Origin: an uncultured Chloroflexia bacterium
Lineage (GTDB): Bacteria; Chloroflexota; Anaerolineae; B4-G1; SLSP01
Length of the DNA stretch: 64,000 nucleotides
Direction: 5' to 3'
Assembly: GCA_963751345.1 (NCBI GenBank)
Contig: CAVVUS010000027.1
Coordinates: 32,001-96,000 of the forward strand
In this document: piece by piece, positions 43,967 through 62,600 of the stretch
How the letters are laid out: every line of letters starts with the position of its first letter
Numbering within the stretch: the first letter of the stretch is position 1
Position numbers and translations under genes: made by a program
The notes under the pieces: model-generated
What the model saw: only the letters and a program-made list of their open reading frames with translations
Databases searched by the model: none
Told to the model about the DNA's origin: nothing

Positions 43967-45265
43967 TCAGGGGATAAACACAGCGTCGGCGGGCATTCCC
44001 GGCTTCAGGAGGCCCTGCGGGTTGGGCAGTTCGATCTCGACGGCATAGAAAGTGTTCAGCCGCTCTTCAGCCGTCGCGACGTTGCGCGGCGTGAATTCCG
44101 GCTCTGCACCGATTTTGACAACCTGCCCCTCAAAGGTTTGCCCCGGCCTGCCGTCTTGGGCGGCGAACGCATCTACGCTGGTCTCGACGCGTTGCCCCAA
44201 CCGCACCTGTCCAACCTGATTCTCGGGCACATAGACCTCGAGCGTCACGGTATGGAGATCGGCCAGCGTGAGGAGCGTTGCTGCCGGAGCGGCCAATTCG
44301 CCCGCCTGCACTACCTGTGCCATAACTATGCCATCGATCGGGCTTGCCAGGATACAGCGATCGATCTTGAGATGCAGGAGAGCAACCTGGGCCTCGGCCT
44401 GAAGCACTTTGGCTTCGGCAACGGCCACCTCCTCGGCGGTCGGCCCGGCCAACGTGTCCGTTAACTGCGCACTGGCTACCGCAACCTCGGCGGCGGCGGC
44501 ATGATACTGACCCTCGGCCGCGTCGGCCTGAGCGATGTAGCCCAGGGGCTTGCTGTGAATCCACCACAACTGATCAAGGAGTGCCTGCGCCGTTCCCTGA
44601 TCGGCCTCCGCGGCGGCCAGGGCGTGCTCGGCGGCGGCGACCTGGTAGTCCGCAGCCTGTCGTTCCGTCGTGCCCTGGGATTTGATGTCCCTCGTCATCT
44701 GAACCTGGGCTAACTGCGCTTCAGCCAGCTCAACCTCCTGCACTGCAAGTGCGACCTGGGAGCGAGCGTCAACGATTCGCGCCTCCAGATCCAGGGGGTT
44801 ATCGACCACATCCAGCGCGTTCTGCCATGCCGTGAATAGACCGTCACGCTTTGCCTCGGCGGCGACCACCTTTGCACGCGCAGCCGCGGTCTCCTCGGCC
44901 CGCGGCCCTGCGCGCAGCACCTCGAGATCACTACGCGCGACACCGACGGCCGCCTCTGCCTGCAGAAGCTGCAGATCCCACGGGGTCGTATCCAGGGCCA
45001 CGAGAGCCTCGCCGGCCCGAACTGTCTCACCCTCCCGGACGTTGACGCTCGTGACCCGGCCGCCGAGTTCGCTGGCCAGGCGGATCTCCGTAGCTCGAAT
45101 CGTTCCCGACGCCGTCAACGGAGAAAGAGCCGCAGACGGCGCCTGCGGCGCGGACGTCGTCTGCGGCGTGCCTGCACAACCGGCAGCCAAAAGTGCCACC
45201 ACTACGCTGATCGCCGACACCACCCTGTGCCGCGTCGACCTCCGACTCACTGCTCCCTCAGTCAT
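43967..45265 (-). CDS. HlyD-family membrane fusion/efflux adaptor protein
   Basis: ASGTI, lipoyl-like GGRV..V.EG, coiled coil, EFTPRNVAT, LKPGMPAD. Confidence 0.85.
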   Translation of the reverse strand: MTEGAVSRRSTRHRVVSAISVVVALLAAGCAGTPQTTSAPQAPSAALSPLTASGTIRATEIRLASELGGRVTSVNVREGETVRAGEALVALDTTPWDLQLLQAEAAVGVARSDLEVLRAGPRAEETAAARAKVVAAEAKRDGLFTAWQNALDVVDNPLDLEARIVDARSQVALAVQEVELAEAQLAQVQMTRDIKSQGTTERQAADYQVAAAEHALAAAEADQGTAQALLDQLWWIHSKPLGYIAQADAAEGQYHAAAAEVAVASAQLTDTLAGPTAEEVAVAEAKVLQAEAQVALLHLKIDRCILASPIDGIVMAQVVQAGELAAPAATLLTLADLHTVTLEVYVPENQVGQVRLGQRVETSVDAFAAQDGRPGQTFEGQVVKIGAEPEFTPRNVATAEERLNTFYAVEIELPNPQGLLKPGMPADAVFIP

Positions 45266-59626: not shown

Positions 59627-62600
59627 CTACCGGATCCCTCTCGCGAGTTGCGCAGGCACATCGCCGGGCGACAAAGCACGAAGCCGGAGCGCATAGCGAT
59701 AGCCGCTCGCCGTGAGTTGGTAGGGTGGCAGGACGCCCGGCCCGCAACTTGCGCTGCCCAACCCCGATTGAGCGAAGTCGAGATTCAGCGTGATCTCGGG
59801 GCGCCGTTCCAGCTCATACGTGTGAGCGGCACCGGCAAGATCGGCCGCGGTGTAATGATGCGCGCTCACCTCGATAAGTGGCATTCCAACGGCAAGCAGG
59901 CCACGCCCCTCCCCATCGGTCAGGGCCGCCCAGCGAACGTCGGTCTTGTTACCATACTCCTGAGGCTTGATGTACCGGACATACTCGGCGTCCACCGTGC
60001 TGTGGTAGACGTCGACCGCCGCGCCTTCCTTACGGTCGACGTAACTCTCCTGTGGCCCGCGTCCGTACCACGTGAAGACCTCATCGGCCTCGGGTAGGGT
60101 CAGCTTGACGCCGACCCTGGCCAACGGTGGCACCTCTTCACCCACATCCACACGATGCTCAAGGATCACGTCCCCACTGGCGTGAATCGTGTATGCGTAC
60201 CGGGTGGTCACCCCCTGCACGTTCGTCGCCATCGTCGCGGTTATCCGCACGACGTCGGGCGACCCCGCCGTCCGAGGCGCCAACGCCGGTTCCGATCGGC
60301 GCGCCGTCCGAGGCGCTTCCGCCGTCCGAGGCGCCTGATCGACCGCCATCGTCCGTACTGACTCGGTTAGGTTGTCGAGGCCGGCATCGTGCCACAGCCC
60401 CGCCATCTGCTTCGCATCGTTGTCGGTCGGAGCGCGCCACAGATGGGTGACGGGACCTTCGAGAAGGACCGGGCGAGATCCGCCCCCTTCCCCATCCGAC
60501 CTCTCCCACGCCGCCATACGCCCCGAGGCCCGGTCGAACGTCACGGCAAAGTCCGCTCCCCGAACCGTGATCAGGGCCTCCGTCTCTTCCACCCGGAGCA
60601 CTCCCTTCGTCTGGGATCCCTTCGCCTCCGGAAGGGCGCCGACGGGCAGCAGGAACTGCGCCCAGGCAACCTCGTGCCCCTTCGGCAGCAAGGGCCCACC
60701 CGACGTCTGGAGCGCAGACGCCGTCTGAGGCGCAGACGCCGTCGAGGCGCAGGCTCTGCCAACGCGAACCGCAGCGTCAACCACGTCTCGGCCCCCACCT
60801 CCGGCTCAGGCAGCACGTAGGGCACGGTCACGACCTCGCTTTGCCCCGCAGGGGTCGACAATTGGGGCAGCGCGCCCTGCTGGAGGACCACACCATCACG
60901 CATCACGGCCCAAGACACCACCAACCCGCTCAGATCGCTGAAGCCGTAGCGGTTGATCACACGAAGGGTCCCGGCATCCAGGTCCACGGGATCCACCCGC
61001 ACCGGCTCCGATACCTTCTTGACTTCCCAAAGCGAAGGATGTGGTACCCGGTCCGGCCATATCAGGCCGTTGATGCAGAAGTTGCCGTCATTAGGCTCGT
61101 CACCATAGTCGCCGCCGTAGGCATACCACGTCGTGCCGTCTTCCTCGGTCCGCAGAAGTCCTTGGTCCACCCAGTCCCACACGAATCCGCCGATGGCCTT
61201 CGGATACGTCTCAATGACCTCCCAATACTCCTTGAGAGCGCCCGGACTGTTACCCATAGCGTGGGCATACTCGCACATGATGATCGGTCGCATATCTGTG
61301 GTATCCGCAGCATGGGCGGCCAAACTGGCGACCGTAGGATACATCAGGGAGACCACATCAACCGTCGGCTCGTCGTAGGCCGGATGGTAATGCACAAAGC
61401 GAGTGGTATCGTGTGCGTGGATCCAGTCCGCGCAGGCTCCAAAGTTCGGGCCATACCCCGCTTCATTGCCGAGCGACCAACCGATCACGCACGCGTGATT
61501 CTTGTCGCGGGCCACCATCCGCGTTACCCGCTCCATGAAGGCCGCGAGCCAGGCAGGGTCCTTAGCGGGCCGGTCCCAAACGCCGTGCGATTCGATGTTC
61601 GCTTCGTCCAACACGTAGAGGCCGTACTCATCGCAGAGGTCGTACCAGCGGGGGTCATCGGGATAGTGGCAGGTACGCACTGCATTGATGTTGTAGCGCT
61701 TCATCAACCGGATGTCGGCCATCATGGACGCGACGGAGAGCGTGTGTCCTGTCTCCGGATCGTGCTCGTGGCGGTTCACTCCCTTGATCAGCACCGGCAC
61801 GCCATTCACAAGGAACTGCCCATCCCTGAGCTCGATCGAGCGGAAGCCGACGCGTGCCCGCTCGACCTGGACCACATGGCCGTCTGCATCGCGGAGCATA
61901 AGCAATAGAGTGTAGAGCACGGGGTGTTCCGCCGACCACTTGGCCGGGTTATCGACGTGCGCTCGCATTGACGCCTCACCGGAATCGCCAAGCGTCTCGC
62001 GCATCGACGCGATCTCAACGCCGCCGGGATCAAGAAGAAGCGCCGCCACCCTCAGACCATGCAGATTAGGCGAGACAAGCCCCCGCACCTCCACATCTAC
62101 CTCGAGGACGGCATCCCGATAGGCCGCGTCGAGGCGCGTCCGCACCGTGTAGTCCCACAGGTGAACCACCGGCACCGACCAGAGCACGACGTCCCGATAG
62201 ATCCCGCTCAGTCGCCAGAAGTCCTGATCCTCGAGGTAAGCTCCATCGGTCCACCGATAGACCTCGACCGCCATCAGGTTCGGTCCCGACTGCAGGTAGG
62301 GTGTGAGGTCGAACTCGGCAGGCAACCGGCTTCCCTGGCTGTAGCCCACGGCCTGTCCGTTGACCCAGAGGTGAAACGCCGAATCGACGCCCTCGAACCT
62401 CACAAAAACCCGACGATCGCCCCAACCGTCCGGAACCTCAAACGTCGTCCGGTAGCAGCCCGTCGGGTTGTCATCGTGCGGCACGTCGAGCGGCAAGCTC
62501 AGCGCCTCTGCCGGCAGTCCACGCTCCGAGATCTTCTCCGATCGCGTCATGTGCTGCATCGCTTCGTCATAGCGTGGATCGATCGGGAATGGGTACTGGA

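Follow-up and report, generated by a model that had tools for sequence, protein, structure and literature searches.

The stretch of DNA analysed here, 64,000 nucleotides long and called the window below, comes from an uncultured Chloroflexia bacterium (GTDB lineage Bacteria; Chloroflexota; Anaerolineae; B4-G1; SLSP01). It covers positions 32,001 to 96,000 of the forward strand of contig CAVVUS010000027.1 in NCBI GenBank assembly GCA_963751345.1, which corresponds to C27:32001-96000 of the genome designated G000 (5.4 Mb, 49 contigs, 93% complete). Copies of a short GC-rich repeat, referred to as Family A, are carried by the reading frames of a group of genes located in the window between 45 and 61 kb. 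Pfam searches identified the hosts as two HlyD proteins, an ABC_tran ATPase, a GlcNAc_2-epimerase, a GH4 protein, a GHL6-type enzyme (with a GH42M domain) and LacZ, the same set as named in a preliminary description made from the sequence letters. All host reading frames lie on the minus strand.

Family A (CGCCGTCYGAGGCGC) occurs 17 times in the window when the word CGCCGTCTGAGGCGC is searched with up to two mismatches. In 100 dinucleotide shuffles of the window the mean was 0.71 and the maximum 3, and 17 was reached in none of them. Sixteen matches are on the plus strand and one is on the minus strand; they span 45127-60733, all sites falling within 45-61 kb, and positions 1-45126 are free of matches. 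Apart from a weak match at 58260, the sites, their near-uniform orientation and the empty first part had all been noted in the preliminary description, and its copy at about 45152 is present as well, albeit in a degenerate form with three mismatches. The same search extended to all of G000 returned 51 matches without mismatch, 136 with up to one and 264 with up to two, compared with 0, 1 and 38 in a reversed-genome control. The initial observation is thereby confirmed, both in the window and genome-wide.

Grouped matches were retained as arrays when they contained at least one unit with no more than one mismatch. This resulted in 84 arrays comprising 155 units, namely 44 singletons, 19 doublets, 15 triplets and 6 longer arrays. 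The 71 unit-to-unit spacings are dominated by 18 nt (48 cases), followed by 17 nt (14), 34 or 36 nt (5), 20 nt (3) and 15 nt (1). The core is 15 nt long, CGCC-GTCYGA-GGCG-C, with positions 1-7 and 11-15 almost constant and most variability confined to positions 8-10 (T 148 and C 99 at position 8, A 209 and C 41 at position 10, with variation at position 9 as well). The 3-nt spacer differs from array to array and is mostly constant inside a given array, and multi-unit arrays mostly end in a spacer on one side only. The term hairpin, applied to the element at the outset, could not be upheld: the stem has only 4 bp (CGCC/GGCG), and the fold of a single unit as DNA (−4.2 kcal/mol) is no better than that of shuffled sequences (z −0.3 to −1.4). 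As a micro-repeat acting at the level of DNA, this discrete core is dispersed in genomes of a single Anaerolineae genus.

The peptides encoded by Family A are lineage-specific insertions, as had been proposed. APQTAS in the GHL6 protein is common to G000 and to the sister species G002 and is missing in 10 of 10 other aligned orthologues of the genus. The epimerase has two units in G000, one in G002 and none in G011 and G018 (absent in 2 of 2), and the 23-residue insert in domain 5 of LacZ is missing in 6 of 6 orthologues. In GH4, a Family A core lies between two units of a second, 21-nt repeat (family B, see below), giving the order B, A, B in G000; G002 has a single B unit and G018, G011 and G016 are without either repeat (3 of 3). 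Two inserts were located in AlphaFold models of modest quality, computed from shallow alignments (mean pLDDT, the model's own confidence score, 65.7 and 54.3) and used locally for the inserts only. The GHL6 insert (residues 157-162) is predicted at the start of a helix following a loop, with pLDDT below 50 at residues 155-159, and that of LacZ in a low-confidence unstructured stretch between strands 141-150 and 178-187. Both models are in line with the loop-like positions suggested earlier. Along the host proteins, arrays occur throughout, with some excess toward the termini.

The interpretation of reading frames depends on the quality of the assembly. Comparison of G000 with G002 showed 12 single-base insertions or deletions in about 20 kb of coding DNA; those listed for the window are at 46168, 46489, 51701, 52186, 52427, 54237, 54250, 57824, 60688 and 60744, and they interrupt the epimerase, GHL6, HlyD and LacZ frames. 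Four public runs were compared, all of them in the form of contigs; the best public run held only 0.18 of the sampled words, and the comparison is informative where contigs cover the window. At 6 of the 12 places independent contigs, 95-99% identical to the window, agree with G002 against G000. The splits of the epimerase, of GHL6 and of the second HlyD (46168 and 46489) are therefore probably assembly errors. Perhaps the same applies to the LacZ split at 60744, which lies outside contig cover, and some of the 17-nt spacings of coding arrays may be assembly errors too.

Table 1. Family A copies in the window, with junctions read there and at other loci. Match starts refer to the search with up to two mismatches; TRF, Tandem Repeats Finder at period 18.
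Feature	Coordinates	Strand	Match starts	TRF	Peptide or remark	Insert; overlap at junction
Degenerate copies, first HlyD	45127..45169	one - (2 mismatches), one + (3 mismatches)	45127 (-)	45131-45168		
Two 18-nt units and pre-existing partial unit, second HlyD	45456..45502	+	45459, 45477	45456-45502	VDGV-RASDGV-RASDGV-PGR	36 nt; 11 nt, GAACGCCGTCT already in target, from DGV codons
Two units and degenerate third (spacer GAA), HlyD 5' end	46819..46873	+	46823, 46841	46819-46862		
Three units, spacings 17 and 18 nt, C-terminal tail of ABC ATPase	47961..48020	+	47971, 47988, 48006	47961-48020	host 47929-48969, - strand	
Two units, N-acylglucosamine 2-epimerase (AGE)	51973..52008	+	51976, 51994		DDT-APRTAS-APQTVF-DKH	18 nt; 3 nt
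Single core, GH4 gene	52964..52978	+	52964		no flanking duplication	exactly 15 nt; none
Weak match, 2 mismatches	58260..58274	+	58260		part of other palindrome GAGACGGGGCGGCGCCCCGTCT; not counted as Family A	
Single insertion (core + 3 nt), GHL6-type glycosidase	59138..59155	+	59141		DY-APQTAS-VREIV	18 nt; 4 nt, direct repeat TACG (in G002)
Three cores, LacZ domain 5	60263..60334	+	60266, 60302, 60320	60266-60335	23 extra residues	69 nt
Two to three units, LacZ domain 4/5 junction	60702..60752	+	60719	60704-60752		
Junction L106 vs C47						54 nt; 10 nt, spacer GAC from target GGCGGAC/GCG
Junction C14:300225	C14:300225					54 nt; 7 nt on one side and, at the opposite side, 5 nt replaced
Junction C14:288279	C14:288279					exactly 15 nt; none

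Some of the copies in Table 1 deserve comment. The degenerate pair belongs to the first HlyD (43967-45265, minus strand), where it falls in an N-terminal linker of lipoprotein type and encodes the peptide ...CAGTPQTTSAPQAPSAAL... The second HlyD frame holds two arrays: the 36 bases at 45456-45491 are absent in G002, and at the 5' end G002 has one degenerate unit. An 87-nt tail of the ABC ATPase is lacking in G002. In LacZ, contigs of other data sets end at the domain 5 array, and at the domain 4/5 junction one unit is short of a base (60744) in comparison with G002, which produces the apparent frameshift.

Gain and loss of units is fast. In seven syntenic regions of G000 and G002 (79-94% identity), 40 array loci were compared. 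Copy number is equal at 7 and unequal at 16, while 9 loci are occupied in G000 only and 8 in G002 only, so that 33 of 40 differ; at some loci occupied in one genome only, a degenerate remnant is seen in the other. A contig from another run, 99% identical on both sides, omits exactly positions 45456-45491 (joint 45455>45492). Unequal copy number at 16 of 40 loci and the existence of this 36-base length variant are what ordinary minisatellites (variable-number tandem repeats, VNTRs) would produce, that is, old inherited loci which expand and contract without giving rise to new ones. Such an explanation is improbable for the family as a whole. The more distant orthologues all have empty sites, only one of the two sister species is occupied at 17 of 40 loci, and the presence of the same 15-mer at 84 unrelated loci is beyond the reach of slippage. 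Site sharing points the same way. Counting only arrays with both flanks mapped to G000 (one-sided maps were dropped), a G000 copy exists at the same site for 14 of 21 arrays of the sister species, and for 0 of 8 and 0 of 5 arrays of two more distant species, none of the 13 thus lying at a G000 site. Hence, the same core was placed independently in diverged lineages.

Two further observations were made in the course of this comparison. At G000 C14:279058 and the corresponding locus on G002 C2 the arrays have opposite orientation, with the stems kept and the loops reverse-complemented, in flanks that are poorly alignable. Moreover, G002 contains two copies (C2:938721-968290 and C19:16162-43060, about 92% and 88% identical) of the region G000 C14:276-306 kb. 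These represent either a duplication or two strains binned together, and they carry different Family A arrays.

The distribution of the repeat was examined in 31 genomes of the order. The core with Y at position 8 is present 108 times in G000, 136 times in G002, 45 times in G016, 31 times in G012 and 20 times in G004, 0-2 times in each of the 14 other genomes of the genus and not at all in 12 genomes of two other families. At least 20 copies are thus found in 5 of the 19 genus genomes searched, a patchy pattern. A poorly resolved tree of the GHL6 protein alone requires two changes, and a single clade of motif-bearing species with one origin is also possible. A conserved 'master' locus was considered and rejected: four motif-poor genomes have one copy each and a fifth has a tandem pair, all of them in unrelated contexts. 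Across one genome per species (185,579 species), two cores 18 nt apart were found in 36 stretches, 34 of them in five Chloroflexota records of metagenome-assembled genomes (MAGs) and one each in two Myxococcota MAGs. The Myxococcota stretches read as SDGG/PSEA-type linkers and look independent of Family A. Literature searches on such repeats in Anaerolineae or Chloroflexi gave no description of Family A.

In view of the single-base errors in G000, an artefact of assembly or sequencing has to be considered, and with it a signal of the DNA-uptake type; the core word GCCGTCTGA matches the Neisseria uptake sequence at 9 of its 10 bases. We regard either as scarcely credible. Five genomes of the genus contain the motif, some of them in highly fragmented assemblies, and it recurs in contigs that come from independent runs. 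Outside cores, GCCGTCTGA occurs 43 times against 44 in the reversed-genome control, which led us to reject an uptake sequence; the copies are moreover clustered and tandem, with an uneven spread.

Coding and non-coding placement was assigned by our own crude codon log-odds score, trained on open reading frames (ORFs) of at least 600 amino acids and used in place of a gene caller. By this classifier, 27 of the 84 arrays are intragenic, 28 lie at a gene edge, 2 between genes and 27 in non-coding DNA, a coding signal being present on at least one side in 57. The idea of an element restricted to coding sequence, as first put forward, is thus not borne out. ORF-based assignment of all matches with up to one mismatch gave six reading frames, and all six persist in a strict set of 20 arrays, each flanked on both sides by coding signal that continues in a single frame. 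In the window, the APQTA/APRTA and ASDG frames are as initially described; a third, RLRRR in LacZ, arises after the one-base difference at 60744.

Among the 20 strict arrays, AP(Q/R)TA and near variants account for 12, PSEA for 3, RLGR for 2, and ASDG, RRPRR and AVRGA for 1 each. This predominance of one frame could be taken to mean that APQTA or ASDG was selected in the proteins as a useful linker, the likeness of the DNA then following from codon usage, and the two Myxococcota genomes with similar DNA in apparently independent SDGG/PSEA-type linkers are compatible with that. The explanation is nevertheless very improbable, in that all six frames are in use, 27 of 84 arrays are non-coding, the nucleotide core is kept while the peptide changes with the frame, and half-words are not enriched outside cores. 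The part of the preliminary description that took Family A for a DNA-level element without a conserved peptide is supported accordingly. Its assumption of a filter for multiples of three appears plausible: coding-associated arrays have 44 spacings of 18 nt and 4 of 17 nt, compared with 3 of 18 nt, 9 of 17 nt and 3 of 20 nt in non-coding arrays. The period of 18 nt in genes, and of mostly 17 or 20 nt elsewhere, agrees with selection that keeps the frame intact.

The non-coding copies have a peculiar context. Thirteen of the 27 non-coding arrays, all of them singletons, occupy the tip of an inverted repeat that is perfect over at least 8 bp. The same is true of 2 of 57 arrays in the remaining classes and of 5 of 500 sites placed at random. 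Two hairpin families are involved, CCTTCCGGGTTGC in 8 cases and GTGCCGGGGA in 5; the former has dozens of copies with varied loops in G000, the latter flanks a RAYT-like gene at C19:139446-139973. Furthermore, 66 of 84 arrays have the motif on the strand that is locally richer in C, with skew taken from 40-kb windows on MAG contigs whose replication origin is not mapped. Of the 7 arrays with a host gene on the C-rich strand, 5 show this bias too. Arrays are clustered, with 25 neighbour distances below 5 kb where 6.2 are expected (maximum 12 in 200 random placements). Neighbours within 3 kb are co-oriented in 16 of 18 cases, and those within 5 kb share the same loop variant in 15 of 25 (9.6 expected, P about 0.025). 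That neighbouring arrays obtain entire 18-nt units from one another is not supported, the spacer being shared in 5 of 36 cases against 9% of random pairs; the neighbour effect is weak and seen for the loop variant only.

The main alternative to the mechanism favoured below is a non-autonomous 15-nt 'mini-REP', named after REPs (repetitive extragenic palindromic sequences). Its movement would depend on a sequence-specific enzyme acting in trans, HUH/RAYT-like or unrecognised, or on copying from a small nucleic-acid template. Insertion would be into single-stranded DNA at hairpin tips and into genes, with slippage only modulating copy number later. We consider this possible, although doubtful. 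The boundaries are discrete at 15 nt with near-invariant positions 1-7 and 11-15, two insertions are exactly 15 nt long without any overlap (Table 1), and the same core was inserted independently in diverged species. The concentration at the tips of two REP-like hairpin families, the bias relative to GC skew, the patchy occurrence in the genus and one copy about 100 bp from the RAYT-like gene on C19, itself flanked by REP hairpins, would also be explained. The search for an enzyme does not favour the proposal. Y1_Tnp domains occur in 17 of 22 genomes of the genus whether or not the motif is present, and the motif lies near only 1 of 19 Y1 loci. The RAYT-like gene on C19 has its best relatives in the motif-free G005 (61%) and G011 (44%) and reaches only 31% in the motif-rich G002. 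Neither RVT_1 (reverse transcriptase) nor TnpB zinc-ribbon domains had a match in the 93% complete G000 assembly, and Ku was not found in any of 22 genus genomes. RAYT as the mobiliser was rejected, and the search suggested in the preliminary description for a motif-flanked RAYT/HUH transposase or reverse transcriptase revealed no consistent partner. Overlaps of 0-11 nt without a single length, and head-to-tail arrays, which are atypical of REPs as far as described in the parts of PMC3733652 consulted, likewise speak against a mini-REP.

Three RAYT-like Y1 loci of G000 are candidates for REPtron-type loci in their own right. The gene at C19:139446-139973 has its own palindromic family GTGCCGGGGA..TCCCCGGCAC, that at C23:278874-279758 has the family GCGGGCGAGACGCCCGCGGTCC, and the one at C19:22201-23094 adjoins a longer repeat of about 150 nt.

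The junctions of de novo insertions (Table 1) are heterogeneous. Some events look guided by microhomology and others like a discrete 15-mer dropped into the target; several also show small substitutions or deletions at the junction, and no common target word was evident among the junctions read. A fixed 3-nt target duplication was considered, given that some singletons are bounded by equal triplets (TAC/TAC in GHL6 of G002), and was rejected because arrays are mostly bounded by a spacer on one side and overlaps range from 0 to 11 nt. A target duplication of fixed length is thus not seen at the junctions.

As the mode of spread of Family A we tentatively favour, at somewhat less than even confidence, template switching that is primed by microhomology and draws on copies already in place, with slippage and selection for frame and tolerated positions acting afterwards. 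In its favour are the use of all six frames, the insertions seen against orthologues, the independent placement in different species, the rapid turnover, the variable junctions, where the target at times contributes part of the unit, the locus-specific spacers, the clustering, co-orientation and shared loop variants of neighbouring arrays, the negative search for a mobiliser and the different periods inside and outside genes. The element itself would encode no enzyme of its own. A nascent strand would stall during replication or repair synthesis at GC-rich sequence resembling the arms of the core (GCGC/GGCG) and switch to a copy already present, in most cases close by and in the same strand; the core would be copied and the strand return with a short overlap. 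Target bases between the two points of re-annealing might become the locus-specific spacer, and slipped-strand mispairing could alter copy number thereafter. Selection would then purge frame-breaking arrays and hits in folded parts of proteins. The survivors in genes would be 18-nt arrays in loops, linkers and termini, most commonly read as the mild peptide APQTA.

A number of observations weigh against template switching. About eight de novo junctions are readable, several of them blurred by divergence, and the insertions at GH4 52964 and C14:288279, being exact and free of overlap, resemble insertion of a discrete unit. The sharing of spacers between neighbouring arrays is not above that of random pairs. 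The position of non-coding copies exactly at the tips of inverted repeats looks like target preference, and the bias to the C-rich strand is as in single-strand transposition. An identical core in species that differ by about 20-25% at the protein level and carry their arrays elsewhere suggests sequence-specific recognition, while the patchy distribution in the genus would fit a patchy trans-acting gene. The coding and non-coding classes, finally, rest on the crude codon score. A more far-reaching reading is that of a discrete 15-nt module inserted by unrecognised sequence-specific machinery acting in trans (an enzyme or a small nucleic-acid template) and targeting single-stranded DNA at hairpin tips and genes, which we hold to be rather unlikely. 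If true, no mobile DNA unit described in bacteria would be smaller than Family A, and new loops would be written into proteins by a natural agent.

The original interpretation is partly supported: insertion into genes and action at the level of DNA stand, whereas confinement to coding sequence and the hairpin are not supported. If very short repeats seed themselves in coding sequence and vary in length, ordinary enzymes and transporters would be steadily supplied with new loops at the surface, new linkers and new tails. The repeats would also be a fast marker separating close strains of uncultured bacteria. The question of how a sequence too short for coding or for recognition as a transposon end can spread is an old one, posed by transposase-less REPs and by the small dispersed repeats (SDRs) of cyanobacteria. 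A genus with repeat-bearing and repeat-free species, and sister species that differ at most loci, makes comparative and population sequencing feasible.

Other repeats accompany Family A. The family B micro-repeat, unit TCGTCCAGTCTGCTGGGCGCA with a period of 21 or 24, is found in the window at 49209-49259, 52943-52999 and 57109-57231. Its hosts are GH4, the GHL6 C-terminus/AKR N-terminus and a GFO-type oxidoreductase. It encodes PADWTMR or QQTGRCA in two overlapping frames, and DDAPSRL in the oxidoreductase. Families A and B have the loop GTCTG in common, and composite 36-nt A/B units occur at C14:301560. A third tandem repeat of 18 nt, CGCGTGGATCGCCACGCGC, is located at 49393-49438 in a GFO/IDH/MocA oxidoreductase, where G000 has 18 more bases than G002. 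The palindromic element GTTGTAGAGACGGGGCGGCGCCCCGTCT lies inside GHL6 (58230-58275); near position 75838, G002 has a 69-nt insertion of this family in an ABC ATPase gene where G000 has none. Intergenic tandem words of the type ACGTTCAAACGT (periods 8 and 16) at 49025-49059 and 54489-54534 differ in length between the two genomes. G000 contains many other families of palindromic 14-mers, e.g. AACCTTCGCAAGGT (79 copies), CGGATCACAGATCC (66) and AAACCCCAAAGGTC (61), and a word CCCGCGCGGGGTGCG...GGATTGAAA which looks like a CRISPR repeat. Runs of 14 C (135) and of 14 A (84) may be assembly artefacts.

With regard to known systems, a scan of the window against Rfam matched no family. Bacterial minisatellites or VNTRs, together with long simple-sequence repeats, were reportedly surveyed by Mrazek et al. 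in 2007. Family A has in common with VNTRs the head-to-tail arrays, the change of copy number between close relatives and the in-frame periods within genes, and units are probably gained and lost by slippage in a comparable manner. A VNTR unit is, however, born locally, whereas Family A is one core at 84 loci, in all frames and newly arisen at empty sites. Miniature inverted-repeat transposable elements differ in having 70-300 bp, terminal inverted repeats and a duplication of fixed length, as against 15 nt and overlaps of 0-11 nt.

The preliminary description had drawn the parallel to the Rickettsia palindromic elements (RPEs). These are said to have been described by Ogata et al. in 2000, RPE-1 having about 100-150 bp and being inserted as a single unit. 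The parallel holds for in-frame insertion: in both cases palindromic selfish DNA is found in frame in unrelated genes, is absent from orthologues and yields peptides that are tolerated. The Family A unit of 15-18 nt is about a tenth of that size, is tandem and is hypervariable between sister species. Two closer precedents had been overlooked, the intragenic REPs and the cyanobacterial SDRs of about 20 nt.

Models of quasipalindrome-associated template switching and of microhomology-mediated replication, as outlined in the consulted parts of PMC7202029, PMC6357072 and PMC2621351, share with Family A short templated insertions, microhomology at junctions, strand bias and complex junctions. The events treated there are isolated mutations for which a neighbouring inverted repeat or a distant sequence serves as template, and they are not known to spread one particular 15-mer through a genome.

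Di Nocera et al. (2013, PMC3733652, where RPEs are mentioned as well) deal with REPs of the GTAG/CGTC super-families in intragenic positions. These are short GC-rich palindromic repeats located, singly or in groups, in the frames of unrelated and probably functional proteins. CGTC-type REPs also occur without a dedicated transposase, and the Family A core contains CGTC. According to the sections consulted, REPs measure 20-40 bp, have stems of 8-9 bp and carry a terminal GTAG or CGTC tag, compared with 15 nt and a 4-bp stem for Family A, in which CGTC is internal (core positions 4-7) and spans the boundary of stem and loop. REPs are described there as mostly intergenic and arranged head-to-head or tail-to-tail, whereas Family A is head-to-tail with a period of 18 nt and about two thirds of its arrays touch coding sequence. 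In contrast to REPIN-RAYT systems, it shows no consistent association with a repeat-flanked RAYT gene (1 of 19 Y1 loci).

Under the name 'very small mobile repeated elements', the SDRs of heterocyst-forming cyanobacteria were reportedly introduced in 2008 (Elhai et al., Genome Res 18:1484); for their description we relied on the passages citing that work in PMC2884548, PMC4390886, PMC13756078 and PMC3116915. As characterised in those passages, they are modules of about 20 nt, dispersed as well as tandem, of variable copy number, precisely inserted and thought to be mobile, with no known mobiliser; the 21-nt SDR5 is reported inside the HIP1 octamer. Family A likewise consists of modules of about 20 nt, dispersed and in tandem, that appear as insertions in comparison with related genomes. 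It differs in phylum, apparently in sequence, in its 15-nt core and in that no common target word, such as HIP1 is for SDR5, is evident among the junctions read. As far as these partial and citing descriptions allow, the closest known relatives in kind of Family A are the small dispersed repeats of cyanobacteria, intragenic REPs and RPEs.

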